Below, piece after piece: positions 1 through 62,654 of a DNA stretch of 62,654 bases. The notes under the pieces are model-generated. The model was not told where the DNA came from, ran no database searches, and worked only from the letters and a program-made list of their open reading frames with translations. Origin of the DNA: a virus. Numbering within the stretch: position 1 is the first letter of the stretch; every line of letters begins with the position of its first letter. The stretch lies in the IMG/VR virus record IMGVR_UViG_3300045988_095058; one strand, 5' to 3'. The translations under genes and the position numbers were made by a program.

Positions 1-99
1 GTTTTTTTTTGCTCTGAAATAAAAATCTAAAGAAACTGAAAAAAGATTACATAGTAAATACATATTTTCTCCAGATATTTACCCTAACTTATGTAGAAA
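1..99. repeat. Terminal direct repeat, left copy (identical to 62556..62654)
   Basis: All 99 nt read identically at both ends of the window. This implies a circularly closed or terminally redundant genome of 62555 unique bp. Confidence 0.95.
72..93 (+). promoter_or_regulatory. Conserved 22-bp box CAGATATTTACCCTAACTTATG upstream of the head module, paired with ATTACATAG at 46..54
   Basis: A near-identical box (20 of 22 nt) is at 51592..51613, with ATTACATAG at 51621..51629. Both lie in intergenic DNA ahead of late-type gene blocks. Confidence 0.4.
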
Positions 100-3200: not shown

Positions 3201-3673
3201 GATTGCTTAATAGCGTATGCAGGGTTATAGCCTCCGCTTATTCTGGGGTGCCAGTGCATATAGAGGAGGTTCCTAATAACTTTGAGCGTAACAGCTTTTA
3301 TGTAACGCTGGCTACAGGCAGTAGCGAGCTAAAAAATCTCAATGTGTATGAGGATGATCCGATATTCCAGATTGTTTACTTTGCGAAAAGAAACGAGGCT
3401 AATCAAGTGGTAGCAGAAAAGCTCTATGAGGTAAAGGAGGAGCTTAAAAGGCTTTTCCTCCTTAAGAGGGTTGTACCTGTGATCCCTTTAGCTGGAGTAA
3501 AGGAAAAACCCAGATATGCAAAGATAGAGAATTACTCCGATGATGTGAGGGTTAGTGAGGGGGCTTTATATGTAAAGATCACTCTCAACTTTACAGAGGA
3601 TGTACCTGTAGAGGATAACTATGAGCTTATCGGAGATGTGGATATTGAAACAAAGACAGTAACAAACGGATAG
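3197..3673 (+). CDS. Tail terminator / tail completion protein
   Basis: 158 aa. ATGA overlap with the upstream gene, directly upstream of the sheath gene. Confidence 0.4.
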   Translation: MRLLNSVCRVIASAYSGVPVHIEEVPNNFERNSFYVTLATGSSELKNLNVYEDDPIFQIVYFAKRNEANQVVAEKLYEVKEELKRLFLLKRVVPVIPLAGVKEKPRYAKIENYSDDVRVSEGALYVKITLNFTEDVPVEDNYELIGDVDIETKTVTNG

Positions 3674-3686
3674 GAGGTTAAACAGA

Positions 3687-4790
3687 ATGGGATTACCAGA
3701 TATTATTATTGAGTTTTCCAAAAAGGCAGTAACAGCCATCCAGAACGGATCTACAGGCATTGTAGGTATTATGCTTAAGGATGCCAAAAACAAGGGGGCT
3801 ATGGTGCTCCGTAGTGTGGATGAGATCCCTACTGGAGATAGTGCTTTTAGTGCAGAGAATACCGCTTATATTGAGAGAGCGTTTATTGGCTCTCCATCTA
3901 AGGTAATTATCTACACGATGGATACAACAGCAGAGAGTTACGATGAGGCTACAAAGTATTTTGCTACACAGAAAGTAAATTACATTGTAGGAGCTCCAGA
4001 TCTTACCACAGAGGAGGCTACTAAGCTGGCTACATGGGTTAAGGGTATCAGAAAGAACTCTGTACGCAGACCTGTAGCAGTACTCCCTAAGACCGCTGGA
4101 GATAGCAGGGGCGTTATTAACTTTGAGGTAGTAAACAGCTCCGCTACAGATAAGATCGAGGTAGGAGAAAAGCAGTACACAGAGGCGGAGTACTGTAGTA
4201 GAATTGCTGGCTTGTTAGCTGGCTTAGATCTCAGAGTATCCGCTACCTATAAGCCTCTTACTGAGGTAACAGCTATCCCTCTGGTAGATAGTGATGAGGA
4301 AGTAGATACCGCTATTGATGCTGGTAAGCTCACTCTCTATAACGATGGAGAGCGTGTTGTAATTGCAAGAGGTGTAAACTCTCTCACTACAGTTACAGAG
4401 GTAGAAACAGCGGATCTCCAGAAAATCAAGATCAATGCTATACAGGATCAGATTGAGGGAGATATTTACAGCACTATTAACAAGAGCTACATCGGTAACT
4501 ACAGTAACTCTTATGATAACAAGTGCTTACTCATTACAGCTATCAAGGGCTACCTTAGAGGGCTGGAGGCTACAGAGGGCGGTAAGGGCTGGCTTAAGGC
4601 AGACAGCTCTACTATGGAGATCAATGTAGCTAAGCAGAAACAGTACTTAGAGAGTATCGGAGTAGATACCTCTGAGATGGATGAGCAGGCTATTAAGGAG
4701 GCTAATACAGGCTCTCATGTATTCCTTAAGGGTACTATCTCTATCTTAGATGCTATCGAGGATGTAGATATTTTCATCAATAAGGATTAA
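3687..4790 (+). CDS. Contractile tail sheath protein (XkdK-like)
   Basis: 367 aa with an MGLPDIIIEF N-terminus typical of Firmicute myophage sheaths. Followed by the tube gene. Confidence 0.75.
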   Translation: MGLPDIIIEFSKKAVTAIQNGSTGIVGIMLKDAKNKGAMVLRSVDEIPTGDSAFSAENTAYIERAFIGSPSKVIIYTMDTTAESYDEATKYFATQKVNYIVGAPDLTTEEATKLATWVKGIRKNSVRRPVAVLPKTAGDSRGVINFEVVNSSATDKIEVGEKQYTEAEYCSRIAGLLAGLDLRVSATYKPLTEVTAIPLVDSDEEVDTAIDAGKLTLYNDGERVVIARGVNSLTTVTEVETADLQKIKINAIQDQIEGDIYSTINKSYIGNYSNSYDNKCLLITAIKGYLRGLEATEGGKGWLKADSSTMEINVAKQKQYLESIGVDTSEMDEQAIKEANTGSHVFLKGTISILDAIEDVDIFINKD

Positions 4791-13566: not shown

Positions 13567-15372
13567 ATGGGTGCTTTTAAGAGTGCAGTAATCACAAAAA
13601 AAGGACAGGAACTCTTAGCAAAAGTGGTAGCAGGTACTACTAAGCTGGAGTTTACTAAGATCAAGGTATCCGATACTAAGTTATCTGGAGATCTGGCAAG
13701 TATGACAGGTATCGGTACTATCAAACAGGAGGAAAAGGTAGCCTCTGTAGTGAGAAAAAATGGATCTAATGTTACAGTATCCGCTAGTTTCTCTAATCAG
13801 ACCTTAGGGCAGGGTTATTATGTAAGAAACTTAGGACTTTATGCAAATGATCCACAGGCTGGAGAGATCCTCTACAGTATCTCAGTGGCAGATGAGAGTA
13901 CCGCTACAGCGGATTATATGCCTCCATTTAATGGTATCGGTGTAAGCTCCCTTATGGTGGATCTTGTAACAGCGGTATCTAATGCCTCTAGCGTAAAGGT
14001 AAACGTAGATCCTACCGCTGGAGCCACAGTAGCACAGATCGTTAATGTACAGGAGCAGATTGACGATGTTAAGAGCTTTGTAGGCTATGAGAGCTCCGAT
14101 GTATACGGTGTGGAGATTGATTTTCCTAATAGGCGGTTTACCAGAATTGCAGGAGCAGAAAATCTTACCGCTGGAGCTGATTTTGATAAGCTCAATCCGT
14201 GGGGCGGTAGAAAGAGATGCATCTTAGCTGATGATGGTACAGTACTTGCATACAGAGGAGAAACAGGATACACAGAGGCAGGAGCTACTACTGTAGAGCT
14301 TAAAAAGACAGTAGACGGAGCAGAAAAAACCTATGCTAGTGGTACTAAGGTACAGGTAATGGTAGAACAGCCTGTATTTTATGTTAAGGCTGTACCTGTA
14401 AGCTCTAAGAACGCTACCAGCGGTAAGGGTAAGCAGTACACTAAGGGTAGATTTTATATCAGCCCTACACCTAAGGCAGGATTTACAGCTCCTAGAGCCT
14501 TTTACGATAATCACGGTATCGTACAGGATAAGATCTATCTCTCAGCGTTTGAGGGCTGTATTTATGATACAGATGCTAAAAAGTATCTTACAGCGGATGA
14601 GCAGGTAGCGGATTTTGCTACAGATATGCTCTCATCTATTGCAGGTGCTAAGCCAGCCAGTGGACTTACACAGAACCTCACAAGAGCGAATGTGAGAAAG
14701 CTCTGTGCTAACAGAGGTGCAGGCTGGGAAAGTCATAGTATTTTTGCTATGGCGGTTACAGAGTGGCTCCTTATGATTGAGTATGCTAGTTTAGATGCTC
14801 AGCGTAAAGTAGGTAGAGGCGTTTGTGATTTTACCGATGATGGTAAAACTAATATGGCTGTAGTAACAGGTGCTACCTCTGGATTAGGTAATGGATCTGG
14901 TATTGATCCTAACGGTGGTGTAGATGGTAAGTGCTCAGTATCTTACAGAGGAGAAGAAAATCTCTGGGGCAATATCTGGACTTGGCTGGATAAGGTAAAT
15001 ATCTTAGCTAAAGGACAGAATGAGGTATTTGTGCATGAGATCGGAGCTACAGTAGCAGATGATACTACCACAGGATACAAGAGCTTAGGCTATCACTGGA
15101 GCCATAGTAACGGCTATCAAAGTGCCTTTGGTATTGATCCAGAGCATCCAGAGTTACTTATCCCTACAGAGGCTAGTGGATCGGATGTATTCACAGGTAA
15201 CTTTGTATGGCAGAATTACACCTACAACGGTTTCTTGATTGCTAAGTTGGGCGGTCTATGGGGTAGTGGCTCTAGTTGCGGTTTCGATCTGAGTGGTAGT
15301 AGTGCCTCTGGTTATCGCTATCGTAGTATCGGCGGTCGCTTGCTGTATGTGCCTCAAACAAAGGTTGCTTAA
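13567..15372 (+). CDS. Tail fibre protein; the DGR variable (target) protein, with the VR in its C-terminal lectin/FGE-like domain
   Basis: 601 aa. N-terminus looks like a tail-collar fibre domain. C-terminus has the NLWGNIWTW segment typical of FGE/C-type-lectin folds. The last ~42 codons form the VR. Confidence 0.85.
   Translation: MGAFKSAVITKKGQELLAKVVAGTTKLEFTKIKVSDTKLSGDLASMTGIGTIKQEEKVASVVRKNGSNVTVSASFSNQTLGQGYYVRNLGLYANDPQAGEILYSISVADESTATADYMPPFNGIGVSSLMVDLVTAVSNASSVKVNVDPTAGATVAQIVNVQEQIDDVKSFVGYESSDVYGVEIDFPNRRFTRIAGAENLTAGADFDKLNPWGGRKRCILADDGTVLAYRGETGYTEAGATTVELKKTVDGAEKTYASGTKVQVMVEQPVFYVKAVPVSSKNATSGKGKQYTKGRFYISPTPKAGFTAPRAFYDNHGIVQDKIYLSAFEGCIYDTDAKKYLTADEQVADFATDMLSSIAGAKPASGLTQNLTRANVRKLCANRGAGWESHSIFAMAVTEWLLMIEYASLDAQRKVGRGVCDFTDDGKTNMAVVTGATSGLGNGSGIDPNGGVDGKCSVSYRGEENLWGNIWTWLDKVNILAKGQNEVFVHEIGATVADDTTTGYKSLGYHWSHSNGYQSAFGIDPEHPELLIPTEASGSDVFTGNFVWQNYTYNGFLIAKLGGLWGSGSSCGFDLSGSSASGYRYRSIGGRLLYVPQTKVA
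15229..15355 (+). repeat. DGR variable repeat (VR)
   Basis: Aligns to 15463..15589 at a constant offset of 234 nt. 100 of 127 positions are identical, and all 27 differences fall at TR adenines. Confidence 0.9.
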
Positions 15373-15398
15373 ATCTTTGAGGAAAAATAAATAAAATC

Positions 15399-15447
15399 AA
15401 AAAGGGTAATAGGAGGAGCTGGAAAGCTCTTTTTTATTACCCTTTTT
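15399..15447 (+). terminator. Long hairpin plus T-run after the fibre gene; candidate DGR homing-enhancing stem-loop
   Basis: AAAAAGGGTAATA pairs with TATTACCCTTTTT. The inner stem is AGCT/AGCT with a GGAA loop, and GGAGG opposes a T-run (G-U pairs in RNA). Confidence 0.65.
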
Positions 15448-15462
15448 GTCGGTAGCTGATAA

Positions 15463-15589
15463 GGTTTCTTAATTACTAAATTAGGCAGTAAATGGAATAA
15501 TGGCTCTAATTGCAGTTTCAATCTGAATGGTAATAATACCTCTGGTAATCGCAATCGTAATATCAGCAGTCACTTACTATATGTGCATA
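15463..15589 (+). repeat. DGR template repeat (TR)
   Basis: Non-coding and adenine-rich. Read in the VR frame it contains 10 AAT codons. Confidence 0.9.
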
Positions 15590-15872
15590 TAAAAATAAAA
15601 GAAAATCAGAGAAATATGTGTTCACTGTGACACTTATTTTACATTAAGTGAGTAACAGCTACCGTGGCTCTTGCCAGAACATAAAACTCCTCTATGAGGA
15701 GCGGTAAAAAATAGCTAAGAGGGTGCTTATGTGCGGAGAAATCCGTAAACCATGTTAGCCTAGCAAGCTAAGAACTGATTGTTATGTGAACGATAGCACA
15801 GGGGTACTACAGCAGGTAGTTAGCTCCCTCTTATGCACATACAAAATTATGATAAGGTGGGTGCCAAAACAC
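15590..15872 (+). ncRNA. Putative DGR RNA spacer region between the TR and the RT start
   Basis: 283 nt with no convincing ORF. Contains local hairpins such as CTCCTCtatGAGGAG and TTAGCctagcaaGCTAA. Confidence 0.4.
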
Positions 15873-17123
15873 ATGAAAGATACTGGAGATTTATTTTCTA
15901 AGATATGCGATATGGATAATCTTAGAAAAGCCCACAAGAACGCAAAGAGAGGTAAAGGGTGGTATGCAGAGGTAAAGCGTATAGAAAAAGATCTGGATCA
16001 TTACCTAAGGAGGCTACAGGAAAATCTAATAGAACACAGGTATCATACCTCAGACTATGAAACTTTTGTAAGAAAAGAGGGGAGTAAGGAGAGGGAGATT
16101 TATAAGTTACCGTACTATCCAGACCGTATATGTCAATGGGCTATCTTACAGGTTATAGAGCCCTACTTACTTAATTCCATGACAAAAGATACCTATAGTG
16201 CAATCCCTAACAGAGGGATCCAGCCTATTATCAATCAATTACGAGGGTATAAGAAAAAGATTAAGAAAGATGGAAAAGTAGTAGCGGAGAAGTGGATACC
16301 CAGTATTTTAGTATCAGATCCAGAGGCTACAAAGTATTGCTTAAAGCTGGATGTAAGAAAGTATTATCCCAGCATTGTACACGATGTACTAAAGGCTAAG
16401 TATAGAGAGCTCTTTAAGGATGAGGAGCTTATCTGGTTAATGGATGAGATCATAGATAGTATTAGTACTTGTCCAGCCACAGAGGAAAATATAGAGATCC
16501 TCCAGAGGCTAGGTGTGGCGGTAAATATTATCATAGACGATAACGGTAGAGAGTTTGTGGATGGCGTAGGTATTCCTATTGGAAACTATGTTAGCCAGTA
16601 TGACGGTAATTTTAATCTATCTGTAGTAGATCACTGGCTCAAAGAGGTTAAGGGCGTTAAGTACTACTTTAGATACATGGATGATATGGTTATTTTCGGT
16701 AGCAGTAAAGAGGAATTACACAAACTCAAAAGAGAGTTAGATGAGTTTATGGCGGTAAATCTTAAGCAGGTGCTTAAGCATAACTGGCAGGTATTTCCTA
16801 CTAAGGTAAGAGGTGTAGATTTTGTAGGCTATAGATTTTTCGGAGAATATACCTTACTCAGAAAATCGACTTGCAAAACATTTAAGCGTAGGATGCTTAG
16901 CATCTCCAGTAAAAGAGAAAACAATGTGAGCCCTACTTATAGTGAGTGGTGCTCATTTAATAGCTATGTGGGCTGGCTACAGCATTGTGATAGCTTTAGG
17001 CTATACCAGAAATATGTAGAGCCTAATGTAGAATATATGCACAATTATTACTTAAAGGAGGTAAAAGGTAATGCAGAAATTTGTAAACGTAAGAACTACA
17101 GCGGAGAGCGTAAAGCCTCTTGA
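15873..17123 (+). CDS. DGR reverse transcriptase
   Basis: YMDD at 16674..16685 and the DGR-type IGNYVSQ motif at 16578..16598. N-terminus is MKDTGDLFSKICDMDNLRKAHKNAKRGK. The ORF-track start at 15786 is probably a non-coding extension. Confidence 0.9.
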   Translation: MKDTGDLFSKICDMDNLRKAHKNAKRGKGWYAEVKRIEKDLDHYLRRLQENLIEHRYHTSDYETFVRKEGSKEREIYKLPYYPDRICQWAILQVIEPYLLNSMTKDTYSAIPNRGIQPIINQLRGYKKKIKKDGKVVAEKWIPSILVSDPEATKYCLKLDVRKYYPSIVHDVLKAKYRELFKDEELIWLMDEIIDSISTCPATEENIEILQRLGVAVNIIIDDNGREFVDGVGIPIGNYVSQYDGNFNLSVVDHWLKEVKGVKYYFRYMDDMVIFGSSKEELHKLKRELDEFMAVNLKQVLKHNWQVFPTKVRGVDFVGYRFFGEYTLLRKSTCKTFKRRMLSISSKRENNVSPTYSEWCSFNSYVGWLQHCDSFRLYQKYVEPNVEYMHNYYLKEVKGNAEICKRKNYSGERKAS

Positions 17124-19608: not shown

Positions 19609-21327
19609 ATGGCATACAGGAAAATAACGGATATAAAAGATACTATTGGTATGAGAGCGGTATTTTATGCCAGAGTATCTACAGCGGAGGAGGAACAGCT
19701 AAACGCTATAGAACTCCAGATTGAGGAAAATAGAGGATGTATTAAGGATCATGGCTGGAAACTGGTAGGAGAGTATATTGATCGCAGTAAGAGCGGTACG
19801 ATGGTAAAGGGCAGAGATGATTACCAGAGGCTCTATGAGGATCTGTATGAGGATCTATTTGATATTGTAGTAATCAAGGATCAAGAGAGGCTCCAGAGAA
19901 ATACTCTGGATTGGTACCTCTTTATTAACAGGGTAGTACAGACAGGAAAGCTCCTGTTTATGTATATGGATGGAAAATTTTACTCTCCAGATGATGCTCT
20001 AATCACAGGTGTACGAGCAATCATAGCGGAGGAATTTAGTAGAAATCTTAGTAAGAAACTCCATAACTACCACGATCACAGAATAGAGAAAGCCAGACAG
20101 GGGCAGGAGATAGCCTTACAGGGTAGTGGTAATGTATATGGATGGGATAAAAAGGATGGTAAGTATTATATAAATCCAGAACAGGCTAAGGTAAGGAGGC
20201 TCATGTGTGAGGGAATTATGGCAAGAAAAGGATCTACCCTCATAGCTAAGGAGCTTAATGAGGCTGGATACCGTAACACAGTAGGGAAACTGTGGAAACC
20301 TATGGATATACCTAAATTTGTATATGATTGTAAAAATGTAGGTACCATGATTATAAACAAAGAAAGACATGATTTTGAGAGTAAGCAAACTATAAAACTC
20401 CCTAAGGAGGAGTGGGTATATGTAGAAAACGCTCTCCCTCCGATAGTCACACAGGAGGAGTGGGATCTAATCTGTAAGATCCATGAGGAGAGAGTAATAG
20501 CCACAGGATCCGACAGGAGAGGCAAGAAAACCAGCGGATACTCTTTTAGTGGTAAGCTGGTATGTGGTATCTGTGGGGCTCCTTACTGGAGGAAACAGAG
20601 AGTATCTAAGGATGAGTACTGGGTATGCAGTACAAAGCAGACTAAAGGCAGGAGAACCAGAAAAAGAGATAGCACGATGGGGAAAGCTGGAGAGATAAAT
20701 CCTTTAGGCTGTGATAATGAAAATATCTCTTATAACTCCCTCATGGAGATAATGGGGGTAGTATCAGAGCGATTACAGGCAAATACAGACACAATAAAGC
20801 ATGATATGATAAATTGGCTTACTAAGCTCAGAAAACAGCTCCTAGAGGCAAATGGAGGGCATACAGAGGCAGATCTACAGCGTGAGCTCTCCAGAAAAAG
20901 TAAGTTACTGGATGCCTACTTAGATGGGATCCTAAATAAACAGGAATACCAGAAAAAAGCAGAGGAGTTAGATGAGAGGATCATCCAGCTCAAAGCAGAA
21001 ACAGAAAAGAATAAGGCTAACTCTGGAGATATTGCAGAGATAGATAAGGTACTGGCTAACATAGATGAGGAGGTATCCAGATATGTAGATGGTAATGAGA
21101 AATTAAAAGTAGAATACCTCTTAGAGCACTTAGAGCAGGTACAGATATTCCCAGATAAGGTTATAGTTATAGTGCCGATATTGAGCGAGGGGATAGTAGT
21201 AGAAAAAGCTCAGTATGTATCTAGGGAGAAATGTTCCAAGATACATACTGAAAGCATGATCCACTACTTAGAGGATTATATGTACTGTACTAGAAAACTG
21301 GGGCTTTATGTGCAGTTAGTAGCATAA
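19609..21327 (+). CDS. Large serine recombinase (integrase)
   Basis: Resolvase-type N-terminus VFYARVSTAEEEQ with the catalytic Ser context, a recombinase domain, a Cys-rich zinc ribbon (CGICGAPYWRK...WVCSTK) and a coiled-coil tail. Confidence 0.9.
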   Translation: MAYRKITDIKDTIGMRAVFYARVSTAEEEQLNAIELQIEENRGCIKDHGWKLVGEYIDRSKSGTMVKGRDDYQRLYEDLYEDLFDIVVIKDQERLQRNTLDWYLFINRVVQTGKLLFMYMDGKFYSPDDALITGVRAIIAEEFSRNLSKKLHNYHDHRIEKARQGQEIALQGSGNVYGWDKKDGKYYINPEQAKVRRLMCEGIMARKGSTLIAKELNEAGYRNTVGKLWKPMDIPKFVYDCKNVGTMIINKERHDFESKQTIKLPKEEWVYVENALPPIVTQEEWDLICKIHEERVIATGSDRRGKKTSGYSFSGKLVCGICGAPYWRKQRVSKDEYWVCSTKQTKGRRTRKRDSTMGKAGEINPLGCDNENISYNSLMEIMGVVSERLQANTDTIKHDMINWLTKLRKQLLEANGGHTEADLQRELSRKSKLLDAYLDGILNKQEYQKKAEELDERIIQLKAETEKNKANSGDIAEIDKVLANIDEEVSRYVDGNEKLKVEYLLEHLEQVQIFPDKVIVIVPILSEGIVVEKAQYVSREKCSKIHTESMIHYLEDYMYCTRKLGLYVQLVA

Positions 21328-24124: not shown

Positions 24125-24134
24125 GGGGGGGGGG
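24125..24134. repeat. Intergenic G10 homopolymer
   Basis: Ten consecutive G, read directly, 37 nt upstream of the DnaD-like gene start. Confidence 0.95.
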
Positions 24135-24170: not shown

Positions 24171-24929
24171 ATGGATCACAGTTTTAATATAAATGTGGCT
24201 AAAAAGCTGGGGATAGCCTCAGCGGTAATACTAAACAATCTGTACTGGTGGATTGATAAAAACAGGGCTAACGATAAGCATTTTCACGATGGTTACTACT
24301 GGACTTATAACAGTAGAAAAGCCTTTGTAGAGCAATTTCCATACCTCACAGAGAGGCAGATAGAGTATGCACTAAGAAAGCTCATAGATGGAGGCTATGT
24401 AATTACTGGAAATTACAATAAAGCCTCCTTTGATCGTACTCTCTGGTATGCCATCACAAAAGAGGGGTATTGCATTTTACAAAATTGTGAAATGGAAGAA
24501 ACAAAAGTGTTAAATGCAAACAACAGAAATGTAGAACCTATACCAGATATAAACACAGATAGTAAACCAGATAAGAAGAAAGAAAGTAAAACAGAGCCAG
24601 AGGAGAGCTTTGACGATATAATAAATTCCTTAGTGGATAATGATGATATTAAAGGCGTGTTAGTGGAATTTATCAAAATGCGTAAACTCATAAAGAAACC
24701 TCTAACAAACAGAGCTCTAAAAAATATCATCTCAAAGTTAAAAAAATTAGCTGGAGAGGATGTTACTTTAGCAGGAGCTATACTGGATCAAAGTATTACC
24801 AATAGCTGGCAGGATATATACCCATTAAAGGATCTGAATAAAAAAGTAGGAGGAAAGCCTACAGCGGTTAGTAAAAAGTTTAGCGGTAATACCCTTAAAG
24901 ATGCTGAGGGTAAGGATATTGTATTTTAG
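24171..24929 (+). CDS. DnaD-like replication initiation / replisome organizer protein
   Basis: N-terminal winged-helix-like region. C-terminal segment VLVEFIKMRKLIKKPLTNRALKNIISKL...WQDIY is typical of DnaD/DnaB_2 domains. Confidence 0.65.
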   Translation: MDHSFNINVAKKLGIASAVILNNLYWWIDKNRANDKHFHDGYYWTYNSRKAFVEQFPYLTERQIEYALRKLIDGGYVITGNYNKASFDRTLWYAITKEGYCILQNCEMEETKVLNANNRNVEPIPDINTDSKPDKKKESKTEPEESFDDIINSLVDNDDIKGVLVEFIKMRKLIKKPLTNRALKNIISKLKKLAGEDVTLAGAILDQSITNSWQDIYPLKDLNKKVGGKPTAVSKKFSGNTLKDAEGKDIVF

Positions 24930-30601: not shown

Positions 30602-31210
30602 ATGAGTAAAGGATTTATTACAGGAACAAATGAGGAACTTATTAAAGCGTACAAAGAGAGTAGAGATGAGAGCTATCTTAAAGAGCTCATAGAGGCTAAC
30701 AAGGGGCTTATTAACCTTTTAGTATCCCCATATTTAACCTCTATCCCTAATTCTGAGTTAGAGGATCTTACAAGTGAGAGCTATATACCGATGCTTAGAG
30801 CTATAGAGGATTACGATCCAGAGCAGGGAGTAGCTTTTTCTACTCTCCTTAAGGTTTATGTACGCCAGCACCTTAACCGTTTATACAACGAGGCTACACG
30901 CCAGAAAAGATTTACAGGTACCACTCCAGATAGCTTAGATCGGTTATCCGAGATCAATAAAGAGGGAGGTACAGAAACAGATAGCACCTTTGAGGTAGAG
31001 TGTAAGGATTTTAGCTCTGTAGAGTTTATGGATCTCTTAGATAGCTTACAGCTCAATGATAAGGAGCAGGTAGCGGTAAATATCCTCATGGCTGGAGGAG
31101 CTAAGGGAGAGATTGCTAAGGCTCTCAATATTACTAATGCTACCGTAAGCTGGCATATCAAGAACCTCAAAAAGAAATTTATTTTAGCTGGTTATCAATA
31201 TGCTGTCTAA
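30602..31210 (+). CDS. Sigma-70-family RNA polymerase sigma factor
   Basis: Region 2-like LIEANKGLINLLV...EDLTSESYIPMLRAIEDYDPEQGVAFSTLL. Region 4-like KGEIAKALNITNATVSWHIKNLKKK. Confidence 0.8.
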   Translation: MSKGFITGTNEELIKAYKESRDESYLKELIEANKGLINLLVSPYLTSIPNSELEDLTSESYIPMLRAIEDYDPEQGVAFSTLLKVYVRQHLNRLYNEATRQKRFTGTTPDSLDRLSEINKEGGTETDSTFEVECKDFSSVEFMDLLDSLQLNDKEQVAVNILMAGGAKGEIAKALNITNATVSWHIKNLKKKFILAGYQYAV

Positions 31211-34334: not shown

Positions 34335-34766
34335 ATGGGATATTTTCCTTTACCAGAGCTAAAGGGTAAGTCTAACAGGATCTTTGTAGATGGTAAAACT
34401 CTAAATCAGATAGCTAAGGAGAGCGGTATAAGGCTGGATACCGTACAGCATAGATATAGCAGAGGTATAAGAGATTATGAGGGCTTAACAAAGCCATCTC
34501 ATATCAGAGTAGAGCACGAAAAGACACAGAGGAAAACCTACTCTATAATGAGTGCTGGAGAGAGAGTAATGGAGAGGATCTGGGAGCTGGATATACCTCT
34601 CCAGACTATCTCCGATAAAACAGGGATAAGTAGATCCACAATATACGCCTTTTTATATAACGGTACAGATCTTAGTAGTATGAGGCTTGCTAAGATCTGT
34701 AGCCTTTTAGGATTATCAATGGATTATGTGATGGGATTAAAGGAGAAACCAGATGGCAAAATGTAA
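34335..34766 (+). CDS. Hypothetical DNA-binding (HTH) protein
   Basis: 143 aa with two HTH-like segments (LNQIAKESGIRLDTVQHRYSRG and ISDKTGISRSTIYAFLYNG). Confidence 0.5.
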   Translation: MGYFPLPELKGKSNRIFVDGKTLNQIAKESGIRLDTVQHRYSRGIRDYEGLTKPSHIRVEHEKTQRKTYSIMSAGERVMERIWELDIPLQTISDKTGISRSTIYAFLYNGTDLSSMRLAKICSLLGLSMDYVMGLKEKPDGKM

Positions 34767-35074: not shown

Positions 35075-35773
35075 ATGAGTATGACGGAATGGGCTAAAAG
35101 AGAGGTAGAGATAGCATCTAAGAGAGAAAGAGGAGATAAGCCAGAGAGTGAGTGGGATTATGGATGTGCTTGCTATGATAGTGCTCTTAAGGCTTTTGAG
35201 AGCCTTTGTGGAGACGGTCACAGTGGTTTTAGTATAGGTATTACAAAGGGGATCCTTAACAGATTGATAGATGGAAAACCTCTTACTCCGATTGAAGATA
35301 TAGAGGATGTATGGAATGTATGTAGTAGAGGAGAAAATGGAGGAGTAGTTACATACCAGTGTAAGCGTATGAGTAGCCTGTTTAAGGATGTATACCCAGA
35401 TGGTACAGTAAAATATCACGATAACGATAGATATTATTGTATTAAATGGGATGATCCTAATTTGTGCTGGCATAATGGGTTTATTGGTAAGATTTATAGT
35501 GAGATGTTCCCTCTTACTATGCCTTATATGCCATCTAATAAAGCGGATGTGATTGTATGTGACGAGCTCCTCACAGATCGTAAAAACGGAGATTTTGATA
35601 CTTTAGCTGTATTGTATATCCAGAGATCTCACGGAGAAAAGGTAGAGGTAAACAGATATTTTAAGGAGGGAGAAAAGAGCTTTATAGAGATCTCTCCAGA
35701 GGAGTATGAGGAGCGTAAGAAGATGCACGAAAAGAGGCAGGAGCAGGAGGATAAGGCACAGGATGAAAATTAG
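35075..35773 (+). CDS. Hypothetical protein
   Basis: 232 aa ORF with RBS TAGGAGGATAATTATT. Confidence 0.6.
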   Translation: MSMTEWAKREVEIASKRERGDKPESEWDYGCACYDSALKAFESLCGDGHSGFSIGITKGILNRLIDGKPLTPIEDIEDVWNVCSRGENGGVVTYQCKRMSSLFKDVYPDGTVKYHDNDRYYCIKWDDPNLCWHNGFIGKIYSEMFPLTMPYMPSNKADVIVCDELLTDRKNGDFDTLAVLYIQRSHGEKVEVNRYFKEGEKSFIEISPEEYEERKKMHEKRQEQEDKAQDEN

Positions 35774-35942: not shown

Positions 35943-36097
35943 GATATAAAGTATATGATGAGGAAGATAAGAAAGAGAGAACTCTGGAGGAGTGCGTAAC
36001 TCCGTTAGAGGTAGGATCTGTAAGGAGAGTACAGGTTAAAAAGGGAGATACAAGAGAGGTACACCACTTTAGAGTACTGGAGGAATTAAAAGCATGA
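35939..36097 (+). CDS. Hypothetical small protein (52 aa)
   Basis: GTG start 6 nt after GGAGG. Its stop overlaps the ATG of the next gene (ATGA). Confidence 0.45.
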   Translation: MRYKVYDEEDKKERTLEECVTPLEVGSVRRVQVKKGDTREVHHFRVLEELKA

Positions 36098-36486
36098 GAG
36101 TGTATATAGCTGGAGCTATGACAGGAGTGTTTAAGTATAAAGAGAAATTTATTGAGGCTGAGGAGTATATAAGAGGGCTGGGGCATATAGTACTTAATCC
36201 CTCATTTTTACCAGAGGGGCTCTCAGATTATTACGAGATCAATAAGGCTATGATAGATCAATGTGATGCTATTTATGTTCTTTTGAATTATGAAAACTCT
36301 AAGGGTACAAAGAAAGAGATTGAGTATGCAGAGAGTACAGGTAAGCAGGTAATTTATCAGAATAGTACAGAGGTAAGAGATCAGAACGGTAACTCATGGA
36401 GCTGGGTAAATAGACCTTTAGGGTATAGTGATTATCCTATAGGATATGGTAATTACTGGGAGTATCCGTGGAGAAGATGTTGGTAA
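36094..36486 (+). CDS. DUF4406 / nucleoside 2-deoxyribosyltransferase-like protein
   Basis: MRVYIAGAMTG N-terminus and overall layout are typical of the DUF4406 family. Confidence 0.55.
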   Translation: MRVYIAGAMTGVFKYKEKFIEAEEYIRGLGHIVLNPSFLPEGLSDYYEINKAMIDQCDAIYVLLNYENSKGTKKEIEYAESTGKQVIYQNSTEVRDQNGNSWSWVNRPLGYSDYPIGYGNYWEYPWRRCW

Positions 36487-36494
36487 AAATTTAA

Positions 36495-36532
36495 TCTAAA
36501 GAAACCTCCTTTATGTGATTAGGATCGATCAA
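36495..36532 (+). promoter_or_regulatory. Class-1 bipartite motif, copy E
   Basis: TCTAAA-N14-GTGATTAGGATCGATCAA. Embedded in a 12-bp inverted repeat that includes the RBS. Confidence 0.55.
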
Positions 36533-36553
36533 AACATAAAGGAGGTTTTTCTA

Positions 36554-37045
36554 TTGAAAGTAGATATTTTTAACACAGAAAACAAGTATAAGATAATCTA
36601 TGCAGATCCAGCATGGCTGTATAGAGATAAGGCGGTAGCAGGAGGGAGAGGGGCTGGATGCCATTATACAGTAACCAGATTAGAGGATATAAAGGCTCTC
36701 CCTGTAGAAAAGTTAGCAGATGATGATAGTGTGCTTTTTATGTGGGTTACAATGCCATTTTTAGAGGAGGCTTTTGATGTGATGAGATCATGGGGATTTG
36801 AGTATAAAACCTGTGCTTTTACATGGATAAAGCAGAATAAGAAAGCAGATACTCTCTTTTGGGGTATGGGTAATTGGACTAGAGCTAATGCGGAGTTATG
36901 TTTATTAGGTGTAAGAGGAAAGCCTAAGAGAATGGATGCAGGAGTACATAGTGTAATTATGAGCCACATAGAGGAGCACAGTAAAAAACCAGCGGAAACA
37001 AGAGATAGAATTGTAAAGTTAATGGCAGGGGGGGGGGCTACCTAA
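36554..37045 (+). CDS. MT-A70-family DNA adenine methyltransferase, truncated as read by the G10 tract
   Basis: TTG start 8 nt after GGAGG. Has YADPAW (DPPW-like motif) and EEHSKKPAETRDRI. The frame ends 8 nt after the G-run. Confidence 0.8.
   Translation: MKVDIFNTENKYKIIYADPAWLYRDKAVAGGRGAGCHYTVTRLEDIKALPVEKLADDDSVLFMWVTMPFLEEAFDVMRSWGFEYKTCAFTWIKQNKKADTLFWGMGNWTRANAELCLLGVRGKPKRMDAGVHSVIMSHIEEHSKKPAETRDRIVKLMAGGGAT
37028..37037. repeat. G10 homopolymer inside the methyltransferase gene
   Basis: Ten consecutive G, read directly. Confidence 0.95.
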
Positions 37046-37106
37046 AATAGAGCTCTTTGCAAGACAGTGTATAGATGGATGGGATTGTTGGGGAAATGAG
37101 GTATAA
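37038..37106 (+). pseudogene. Out-of-frame conserved C-terminal segment of the methyltransferase
   Basis: The +1 frame reads LPKIELFARQCIDGWDCWGNEV-stop, matching the ELFAR...GWD.WGNE ending typical of MT-A70 enzymes. G9 would fuse it in frame. Confidence 0.7.
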
Positions 37107-37113
37107 GAATTGT

Positions 37114-37143
37114 AGGAGGTGTAAAAAGCCTCCTCTTTTTTTT
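37114..37143 (+). terminator. Rho-independent terminator
   Basis: AGGAGG-tgtaaaaag-CCTCCT followed by CT8. Confidence 0.75.
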
Positions 37144-37204: not shown

Positions 37205-37354
37205 ATGGTAAGACAGATTAAAAGAAAATGGAGAAGATTTTACAGAACTCATAGAGAGGGCTGTGAGTTGGTAGGAGATTTTATTGGAGCTGTAAGTATT
37301 TTTGTAGTTTTATTTGAGCTCTATATCATCGGAGTTATGTTAGGAGGTCACTAA
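37205..37354 (+). CDS. Small membrane protein (49 aa)
   Basis: Basic N-terminus followed by the TM helix FIGAVSIFVVLFELYIIGVML. RBS CAGGAGGATCAAGG. Confidence 0.5.
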   Translation: MVRQIKRKWRRFYRTHREGCELVGDFIGAVSIFVVLFELYIIGVMLGGH

Positions 37355-38412
37355 TGGGATTAAAGAGCTTAATAGCAGTAGCACAAGGAAAAAATGCAGA
37401 GAGCGTATCCTTTGAGGATAAGTTTCTTAAAAATTATGAGGAGGCTGTAAAGGCTAAGGAGCTGGAGGAGAGGCAGATAGCCCCATCTGAGTATATCCGC
37501 CCATCCTCTATGTATGGCTGTGAGCGTATGTTATTTTTCCAGAGAGTACATGGAGGCTCCCAGAATGGAGAGCAGAGTGAGGTAAATCTTATTGAGATAT
37601 GCCAGAGCGGTACAGATAGGCACTTAGACATACAGCACATAGTAGAGCGTATGGAGGGTGTAGAGTGCTTAGATCTGGAGGAAATGGTAAAAGAGGCACA
37701 GGCTAAAGGCATTAAAACAGAGTTTGTAGGCTGGAATGAGGATCACACAGAGGGCAGATGTAAAAATGATGAGCTTTCTATTTATTTCCAGCCAGACGGA
37801 GTTATTAGATTTAATGGTAAGGATATAATCTTAGAGATTAAAACAGAGAGTACTTATCAGTTTAGTAACCGTTATGAGCCTAAGGCGGATCATAAGTGGC
37901 AAGCTACTTGTTACGGTATGGGGCTGGGGATAGATTATATCCTTTTCTTTTATGAGGATAGAAATTTTTGTAAAAAGAAACCGTACCTCTGGAAAATAAC
38001 CGATGAGATGAAACAGGCAGTACTTAACAAGATACGAACTGTAAACAATGCTTGTAAAACAGGGATCCCTCCAGAGAAAGATGATAGCAAGTGTACATAC
38101 TGTAGATATAAAAATGAGTGTGCTTTAGTGGATGCTGGTAAGTGGGTACATCCTAACCCTCCAGAAAAGCCTCAGACAGCCAAGAAAGATACAAACAGAA
38201 AAAAGGATAATAAGTCTACAGGTAAAAAGAAAAAAGCCTCTACAGGGCAAAATACAGCGTTGAGAGCGGTATGTGGTAACTGTGAGCATTGTGGTAGAGA
38301 GCTGGGAGCTTACTACTGTAGCATTGATAAAGATGGATCTATGTATGTAGATCGTAGAAAGAAATGTAAGTTTACTCCTAGCAGGTTTAAGGGGGTACAG
38401 GATGGCAAGTAA
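37354..38412 (+). CDS. PD-(D/E)XK (Cas4/RecB-like) nuclease with a Lys-rich, zinc-ribbon C-terminal extension
   Basis: GCERMLFF, FQPDGVI and ILEIKTES segments plus a CTYCRYKNEC cluster. The tail has CGNCEHCG. Confidence 0.65.
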   Translation: MGLKSLIAVAQGKNAESVSFEDKFLKNYEEAVKAKELEERQIAPSEYIRPSSMYGCERMLFFQRVHGGSQNGEQSEVNLIEICQSGTDRHLDIQHIVERMEGVECLDLEEMVKEAQAKGIKTEFVGWNEDHTEGRCKNDELSIYFQPDGVIRFNGKDIILEIKTESTYQFSNRYEPKADHKWQATCYGMGLGIDYILFFYEDRNFCKKKPYLWKITDEMKQAVLNKIRTVNNACKTGIPPEKDDSKCTYCRYKNECALVDAGKWVHPNPPEKPQTAKKDTNRKKDNKSTGKKKKASTGQNTALRAVCGNCEHCGRELGAYYCSIDKDGSMYVDRRKKCKFTPSRFKGVQDGK

Positions 38413-62534: not shown

Positions 62535-62565
62535 ACTACTAGCGTTATGCTGGTAGTTTTTTTTT
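62535..62565 (+). terminator. Rho-independent terminator
   Basis: ACTACTAGC-gttat-GCTGGTAGT (one G-U pair) followed by T9. Confidence 0.75.
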
Positions 62566-62654
62566 GCTCTGAAATAAAAATCTAAAGAAACTGAAAAAAG
62601 ATTACATAGTAAATACATATTTTCTCCAGATATTTACCCTAACTTATGTAGAAA
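62556..62654. repeat. Terminal direct repeat, right copy (identical to 1..99)
   Basis: Read directly; 99 of 99 nt identical. Confidence 0.95.

Follow-up and report, generated by a model that had tools for sequence, protein, structure and literature searches.

A poly-G tract of variable length in the methylases of a Lachnospiraceae temperate phage: a probable slipped-strand switch

The textbook examples of slipped-strand switching of methyltransferases come from a few Gram-negative pathogens adapted to their hosts. Phasevarions are known from the Type III mod genes of Haemophilus, Neisseria, Helicobacter, and Moraxella, and from ModS of Streptococcus suis; homopolymer G switches are, to our knowledge, hardly described in Lachnospiraceae. 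Such switching is the mechanism of classical contingency loci and of repeat-driven phase-variable methylases of Types I, IIG, and III (for example, PMC5909438, PMC4889913), among them the poly-G Type IIG methylase cj0031 of Campylobacter jejuni (PMC4889913). Here, we analyse a stretch of viral DNA of 62,654 nucleotides (nt) (IMG/VR record IMGVR_UViG_3300045988_095058, hereafter the window), which is the complete genome of a temperate phage, and more precisely its MT-A70 (predicted N6-adenine) methyltransferase gene (Pfam PF05063; 36554..37045, + strand), whose frame is broken by a run of ten Gs (37028..37037, + strand). We conclude that this G10 run is probably one allele of a slipped-strand contingency switch acting on interchangeable orphan methylases of the phage.

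Phages carry many orphan methyltransferases directed against restriction, such as T4 Dam, P1 Dmt, and numerous MT-A70, Dam, and Dcm genes of temperate phages, and we know of no report of repeat switching for any of them. Poly-G switching in phages is known to us only from Campylobacter phages. There, as the work is summarised in the citing article, hypermutable polyG tracts lie in receptor-binding genes (Sorensen et al. 2021, Cell Rep 35:109214, cited in PMC12823448). A search of the literature on repeat-switched methylases in gut Firmicute phages returned no description, though this leaves their absence unproven.

The interrupted MT-A70 gene

The gene starts at TTG 36554, with the ribosome-binding site (RBS) AAGGAGG (36539..36545) eight bases ahead. 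This is the start used in the full-length homologs (P0001/P0121); the mechanical list of open reading frames extends the gene to GTG 36515. As read, the frame closes with AAG TTA ATG GCA GGG GGG GGG GCT ACC TAA (stop TAA at 37043..37045) and gives a protein of 163 amino acids (aa), the ten counted Gs, i.e., the hypermutable element, coding for Gly-Gly-Gly. Directly behind the tract, and shifted to +1 with respect to the frame of the G10 gene, come 22 further C-terminal codons, LPKIELFARQCIDGWDCWGNEV, and a stop (37038..37106, + strand, stop at 37104..37106). The frame is restored at G6, G9, and G12, and the G9 protein has 183 aa. When the two parts are joined as in G9, PF05063 matches with 107.6 bits (cut-off 23.9, E-value 9e-31) over positions 1-172 of 172, and the as-read G10 protein reaches 80.1 bits (E-value 2.5e-22) over positions 1-147 of 172 only. 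The G9 form also matches phrog_359 DNA methyltransferase (5e-86), and the catalytic DPPW-type motif is present as YADPAWLY (residues 16-23), the relatives carrying DPPW or DPAW. The original prediction, made from the letters of the window, had thus rightly read the gene as cut by the G10 at ...MAGGGAT-stop and the next frame as holding the conserved MT-A70 ending; the full length that it expected from G9 or G12 follows from frame logic, as it does for G6.

The predicted effect of this truncation can be judged by comparison with METTL3. In the METTL3-METTL14 structure, 11 residues coordinating S-adenosylmethionine (AdoMet) are listed, and the E532A or N539A substitution in METTL3 abolishes activity (review, PMC9095908). 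In our sequence alignment, the GGG of the tract falls in the loop LSP-GTRK, just ahead of the last strand, and the 22 residues that are lost correspond to METTL3 K530-Q550 (KIELFGRPHNVQPNWITLGNQ); a cost of about 22 conserved C-terminal residues had been foreseen for G10. Seven of the 11 AdoMet residues (E532, L533, R536, H538, N539, N549, and Q550) are within the lost stretch. This C-terminal AdoMet strand and loop (the equivalent of METTL3 E532-Q550) is conserved, but it lies in the +1 frame in the window allele and is joined to the rest of the enzyme in the G9 alleles. Given the seven AdoMet residues of METTL3 that fall in the missing part, G10 should mean OFF, and there are good grounds to infer that the G10 product is inactive.

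Runs of seven or more Gs occur twice in the window and both are G10 (24125..24134 and 37028..37037), for an expectation of 0.08 G10 runs from base composition; none of 100 dinucleotide-preserving shuffles attained the observed number of G9 matches. The methylase run lies inside the open reading frame, has a length sufficient for slipped-strand mispairing, and far exceeds chance expectation. GGG is the rarest Gly codon of the phage (14.6%), the pair GGG-GGG is used in none of the 81 Gly-Gly pairs and none of the 7 Gly triplets of the 64 other genes, and three GGG would come together by chance with a probability of about 0.003.

Both the tract and the segment behind it are kept in diverged lineages. 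In three loci with 81-82% protein identity (L025, L027, and L028) and in a locus of a sister lineage (L144), a run of Gs occupies the same codon position between different flanks, and in all of them the in-frame length is G9 and the observed state G10. Homologs at 69% identity or less have no run and read LCGDIPRIELFAR. The "lost" C-terminal segment is whole, in its own frame, in five G10 alleles of diverged lineages. Between the window and L028, it shows 5 synonymous and 2 non-synonymous changes, the differences between lineages being mostly synonymous; IELFAR and GWDCWGNEV are invariant between lineages despite the silent changes within them, and the synonymous to non-synonymous ratio of the segment is the same as that of the N-terminal core. 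This pattern indicates that the out-of-frame segment is under purifying selection, and since it is intact and biased towards synonymous changes, the ON state must be visited and selected. Over evolutionary time, the gene has been kept functional and the tract retained down to about 81% identity, as in a phase-variable locus. Homologs in which the C-terminal segment is no part of the enzyme were what the original prediction named as speaking against itself; those that we checked show that the segment belongs to the enzyme.

Tract lengths across assemblies and methylase families

We took a census of tract lengths in public assemblies, in which the products that the window's N-terminal haplotype would give with each tract length were looked up by exact sequence. 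In the main lineage, the tract was G5 in 2 contigs, G6 in 3, G7 in 147, G8 in 861, G9 in at least 1000, G10 in 891, G11 in 78, G12 in 12, G13 in 2, and G14 in none, i.e., a bell-shaped distribution round the in-frame G9 (mean of about 9.0, standard deviation of about 1). The exact product was found in 1886 assembly-index blocks for G9 and in 1551 for G10 (163 aa), the latter coming from MEGAHIT, SPAdes, and scaffolded assemblies with contigs of up to 1.85 Mb. Illumina consensus errors at such a homopolymer would not yield this spread of lengths. In the sister lineage (about 80% identity), the lengths G7, G8, G9, G10, and G11 were found in 5, 20, 65, 35, and 8 contigs, and G5, G6, G12, G13, and G14 in none. 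Loci of the same species picked from IMG/VR regardless of tract length gave 16 G9, 4 G10, and 3 G8. The locus is therefore polymorphic from G5 to G13 on an identical N-terminal haplotype, with verified frame switching, as expected of a phase-variable locus, and the slipped-strand contingency switch, the option towards which the original prediction leaned among the three that it offered for this tract, is supported by the census together with the homologs. The change is also rapid. When about 3.5 kb round the methylase were aligned in 38 loci with homopolymers masked, G-tract length was discordant in 30-40% of the locus pairs that are 1-5 substitutions apart; tract length thus turns over far more quickly than point mutations accrue.

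The strongest argument for a selected switchability comes from the other methylases of the phage species. One variable region of its genome holds an MT-A70, a Dam/D12, or a C5 methylase, or no methylase at all (L124). We used the primase gene (99-100% identical) as an anchor, and both G tracts (the one in the methylase and the intergenic one at 24125) were taken from the same contigs. In MT-A70 (PF05063), the run stands in the context ...KLMA-GGG-LPKIELFAR and is G8-G10 in the loci and G5-G13 in the census. In D12/Dam (PF02086, 1e-39), it stands in motif I, DLFA-GGG-NVSV (FAGGG), and is G7, G8, G9, or G10, with one interrupted run, GGGGGGTGG. In the C5-cytosine methylase (PF00145, 4e-53), the context is ...PQNRDRIIAVSKLRA-GGG-LHNFEFP, and the run is G9 or G10 in the loci. 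A run of about nine Gs is thus observed in three unrelated methylase families that have one function and occupy one region. Moreover, in the 20-kb stretches of the species, long G or C runs are found only in the methylase, in the intergenic tract, and at one locus at the DnaC/DnaB junction.

Tract length is polymorphic in the Dam and C5 cassettes as well. Dam stubs were counted at G7 (85), G8 (742), G10 (452), and G11 (134), and the full-length Dam G9 forms amount to several hundred in total, distributed over haplotypes. For C5, the census gave 3 G7, 9 G8, 6 G9 plus other full-length variants, and 6 G10. For Agathobacter rectalis and Dorea longicatena, the Dam stubs of 43-46 aa bear the NCBI name "DNA adenine methylase"; the full-length form is named in [Ruminococcus] lactaris. 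Dam homologs outside the group encode the FAGGG of motif I in mixed Gly codons, without a run. A Dam relative at 71% identity (L156/L179) has G9/G10, with a contig end inside the tract. In two further phage Dam genes, the homopolymer is out of frame, being G7 in motif I (L172, position 2606) and C10 near the N-terminus (L180, position 2483). Such homopolymer-interrupted Dam genes on other gut phage contigs suggest a wider phenomenon, and also that assemblies break at the tracts. In the Dam allele of L127, the interrupted run GGGGGGTGG is in frame and motif I becomes FAGGW; this allele may be locked, and its AdoMet motif is possibly altered.

The proposed switch and its rivals

We propose that slipped-strand mispairing at the G run, during replication of the phage or prophage, would gain or lose Gs. 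G9 (and also G6 and G12) would be ON and give the full enzyme of 183 aa; G7, G8, G10, and G11 would be OFF, the frame shifting just before the last beta-strand and the AdoMet-binding segment being lost. The window genome would then show an OFF allele. By switching that is reversible, and fast in comparison with point mutation, phage and lysogen populations would become mixtures of methylating and non-methylating genomes. Switching inside clonal populations is what these alleles point to, and its benefit would be bet-hedging: methylated DNA would evade classical restriction-modification, and unmethylated DNA would evade methylation-dependent restriction, the classic case of the latter against methylation-blocked restriction being the DpnI/DpnII contrast at GATC. 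The OFF state may also save the lysogen the cost of methylating its chromosome.

The best-surviving alternative, which we nevertheless regard as unlikely, is neutral decay: the methylase would be dispensable cargo with a mutational hot spot, and OFF alleles would be tolerated losses of function, with no selected switch. Several results weigh against our own proposal here. The intergenic, presumably neutral T-run of the terminator behind the methylase (37136..37143) varies from T6 to T10 among near-identical phages (L001-L080), and in the same locus pairs it is discordant in 40-50%, i.e., it drifts as fast as the G tract. The idea that the G tract is more mutable than a neutral homopolymer was therefore rejected; length drift alone is no proof of a selected switch, and this equally fast neutral drift tempers any reading of the tract as a designed switch. 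Every T8 or T9 run of the window is the tail of a terminator, and A/T runs inside genes never exceed 7. Only about 36% of main-lineage assemblies and about 49% of those of the sister lineage are ON, close to the neutral one third; the in-frame G6 and G12 show no enrichment over neighbouring lengths in the census, and in the Dam cassette the commonest length is the OFF G8. OFF alleles show themselves to be tolerated about as well as neutral variants. Nor is the ON/OFF state significantly linked to integrated contigs (>200 kb; Fisher p = 0.09), so that an enrichment of OFF alleles in integrated prophages was also rejected. Population heterogeneity, reversibility, and switching rate are, for their part, deduced from differences between assemblies. 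Neutral decay would also fit with the dispensability of the gene, since some phages of the species have no methylase in the region, and with the interrupted tract of the one Dam allele.

On the contrary, decay does not account for a C-terminus that stays intact out of frame, apparently under purifying selection, in lineages at about 81% identity, nor for a pure G run in the rarest Gly codon that is kept across these lineages. It leaves aside the fact that the runs sit in three unrelated methylase families of one region, with no long G run in any other gene of the window. Finally, the OFF alleles carry no other disabling mutations, and the N-terminal haplotype is identical in ON and OFF.

A second alternative is programmed recoding, in which G10 would be functional and the full-length enzyme would be made through RNA polymerase slippage or a +1 ribosomal frameshift on GGG-G. 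Programmed transcriptional slippage and +1 frameshifting are well known from dnaX, the transposases of IS elements, and prfB, and our locus resembles such recoding sites in having a homopolymer where two overlapping frames of one protein meet. In addition, G10 is very common (1551 blocks), it is found in all three unselected diverged IMG/VR lineages, the C-terminal segment is conserved in G10 alleles, and, from sequence, tRNA-Gly would re-pair perfectly one base along within the G run. However, recoding sites have a fixed out-of-frame architecture, usually with A/T runs or with a slippery site and a stimulator; here, the out-of-frame architecture is not fixed, two lineages are unimodal at the in-frame G9, and the variation lies on both sides of this modal length. 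G8 and G10, which are about equally common, would need opposite shifts. The A site at the shift has no rare or stop codon, no conserved downstream stimulator is present, and the bacterial cases of transcriptional slippage on record involve A/T runs, where the RNA:DNA hybrid is weak (PMC6260861). We consider recoding improbable as the explanation of the tract, and a low-level leaky expression from OFF alleles may occur and would be compatible with a contingency switch.

The last alternative, which the original prediction had allowed, is an artefact: the tract would in truth be G9, with one G added by a homopolymer error of sequencing or assembly. It would suit the error-prone behaviour of homopolymers of 9-10 in library PCR and nanopore data and the related contig (L156/L179) that breaks exactly within its G tract, but it is very improbable given that independent samples and several assemblers yielded the exact G10 product (1551 index blocks, 891 contigs), and given the smooth G7-G12 distribution not expected of Illumina consensus errors, the G5-G13 range on one haplotype, and the frame-shifted Dam stubs annotated in NCBI isolate genomes, and the locus would be polymorphic even if the window contig were one G off.

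The carrier phage and comparison with known systems

The window has an exact terminal direct repeat of 99 nt (1..99 and 62556..62654) for a unit length of 62,555 bp, and the genome is circular or terminally redundant. Its genes include a large serine recombinase (19609..21327), a CI-like repressor, a terminase, an SPP1-type portal, and a CHAP-LysM endolysin, together with a replication module made of an initiator, a DnaC-like loader, DnaB, a primase, and a family A polymerase. The phage integrates, since the same methylase gene is found on contigs of up to 1.85 Mb. Among GenBank phages, the window has no near match, and the MT-A70 matches are distant only; among GTDB species representatives, there is no close copy, the best match being a Lachnospiraceae metagenome-assembled genome at 83% identity. 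The host assignment therefore depends on the NCBI names of identical proteins, and the identical G9 protein is labelled "MULTISPECIES [Lachnospiraceae]". From these records, the carrier appears to be a human-gut temperate phage of Lachnospiraceae.

The methylase locus is a mosaic region flanked by the polymerase and by a conserved Cas4/RecB-like nuclease gene (37354..38412). Its neighbours are a Tad3-family gene (35075..35773), so called from the precomputed Pfam PF25185 assignment on the near-identical gene of relatives, and a gene resembling DUF4406 or nucleoside 2-deoxyribosyltransferases (36094..36486). The surroundings of the methylase thus resemble an anti-defence island, and these neighbours are candidate anti-defence genes. 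In the sister lineage (L144/L145), a Mom-family DNA-modification gene (3265..3900) lies in another variable region.

The methylase gene itself is a self-contained cassette with its own leader hairpin and terminator. The conserved leader (36501..36549, + strand) forms a long hairpin that buries the RBS, contains the motif TGTGATTAGG at 36514..36523, and is followed by TTTTTCT; its predicted fold has a free energy of -25.4 kcal/mol (z -5.5), with the methylase RBS as its 3' arm. The MT-A70 leader also precedes the Dam cassette in sister phages. This hairpin could be a terminator for the upstream gene, a mask on the initiation of methylase translation, or both. The intrinsic terminator of the cassette (37114..37143, + strand) has a 7-bp stem followed by T8 (the T-run considered above). 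The motif of the leader belongs to a set, TGTGATTARG, of which the window contains 7 copies for 0.2 expected (21362, 23435, 24978, 31225, 36514, 37164, and 45660), all on the + strand, intergenic, and upstream of genes of the early region; a promoter or operator element specific to the phage is its likely role. Sigma-like proteins are encoded by the phage at 30602..31210 and 34335..34766.

The second G10 (24125..24134, + strand) is intergenic and located 36 nt upstream of the replication-initiator gene (24171..24929; phrog_11233 replication initiation protein). Neither this tract, nor the exchange of the MT-A70 gene for Dam and C5 methylases with G runs of their own, nor the equally fast drift of neutral homopolymers figured in the original prediction. 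It is G8, G9, or G10 in the relatives (L107-L140), with small variants of the AGAG flank. In the RNA folds computed from G8 to the longest length, the poly-G pairs with the CU-rich CUCUCCUCUCUCC (-22 to -29 kcal/mol), and when the run is cut to GG, CUCUCCUCUCUCC pairs instead with the Shine-Dalgarno GGAGG. According to these models, the tract may be a length-tuned translational control. A role as a promoter-spacer switch is unsupported, no sigma-70-like promoter being found round it on the + strand. A third G10 is seen in a relative (L119, 6550..6559, corresponding to about 25660 in the window) where the DnaC-like gene meets the DnaB gene; it turns the ending GDRRGL-stop into GDRRGGGL-stop and overlaps the RBS of the helicase gene.

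The window also contains a diversity-generating retroelement (DGR) (13567..17123), with a reverse transcriptase (RVT_1, 15786..17123), a template repeat (15463..15595), and a variable repeat (15229..15361). The latter lies at the C-terminus of a 601-aa gene (13567..15372), and 28 of the 29 mismatches fall on template adenines. This phage therefore has two separate diversity generators, the DGR on a receptor-binding gene and the G tracts. More tentatively, we suggest that a widespread group of temperate human-gut phages of Lachnospiraceae could have acquired poly-G tracts (poly-C in relatives) independently in interchangeable orphan methylases of three unrelated families and before the replication initiator, and that these would form, with the DGR, an epigenetic bet-hedging module.

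If this were true, each burst or lysogen lineage would hold methylated and unmethylated genomes, a phage reported from several host genera could pass both classical and methylation-dependent restriction, and abundant gut commensals would have phase-variable methylomes driven by their prophages. As the element integrates (contigs of up to 1.85 Mb), it is conceivable that methylase switching alters host gene expression in lysogens, i.e., that it acts as a phasevarion. Methylase switching would then be a trait also of temperate phages that infect dominant Firmicutes of the human gut and that occur in thousands of public metagenomes, and the switch would belong to the function and not to one gene family, because it is found on whichever methylase fills the region. 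Two questions become testable, namely what trade-off a phage makes between escaping classical restriction and becoming exposed to the methylation-dependent kind, and whether prophages impose a heritable and reversible epigenetic heterogeneity on gut commensals. In practice, annotation pipelines would label such genes as pseudogenes or, as NCBI does, as "DNA adenine methylase" stubs of 43-46 aa, and assemblies may break at the G tract.

Like the bacterial phase-variable methylases, the locus has a simple repeat in the open reading frame, and a change of length shifts the frame ON or OFF. Its tract length of G8-G11 and its spread of lengths resemble those of the Campylobacter and Helicobacter poly-G loci. 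Unlike the bacterial phasevarions, which are chromosomal, it is carried by a temperate phage of Lachnospiraceae (Firmicutes) and involves orphan Type II-like MT-A70, D12/Dam, and C5 enzymes, with no restriction partner seen nearby. It also differs from them by the position of the MT-A70 tract near the 3' end, which makes the OFF product a near-full-length truncation.

With the Campylobacter phages, insofar as they are described in the citing article, the locus shares a phage-borne poly-G, mixed phage populations, and a counter-move to host resistance. There, the tracts lie in receptor-binding and other structural genes of virulent phages, whose Gram-negative host itself uses poly-G switching. 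Here, on the contrary, the methylases that carry the tracts are of the anti-restriction type and belong to a temperate phage of gut Firmicutes, in which the receptor-binding gene is diversified by the DGR. With the known orphan methylases of phages, our locus has in common a small solitary methylase, in the early or replication region, mosaic, and beside candidate anti-defence genes; unlike theirs, its expression would be stochastic and heritable via tract length. In conclusion, the mechanism is already known, and what is new is its temperate-phage carrier, its Lachnospiraceae host, the class of orphan methylases that it concerns, and its convergence in three methylase families.

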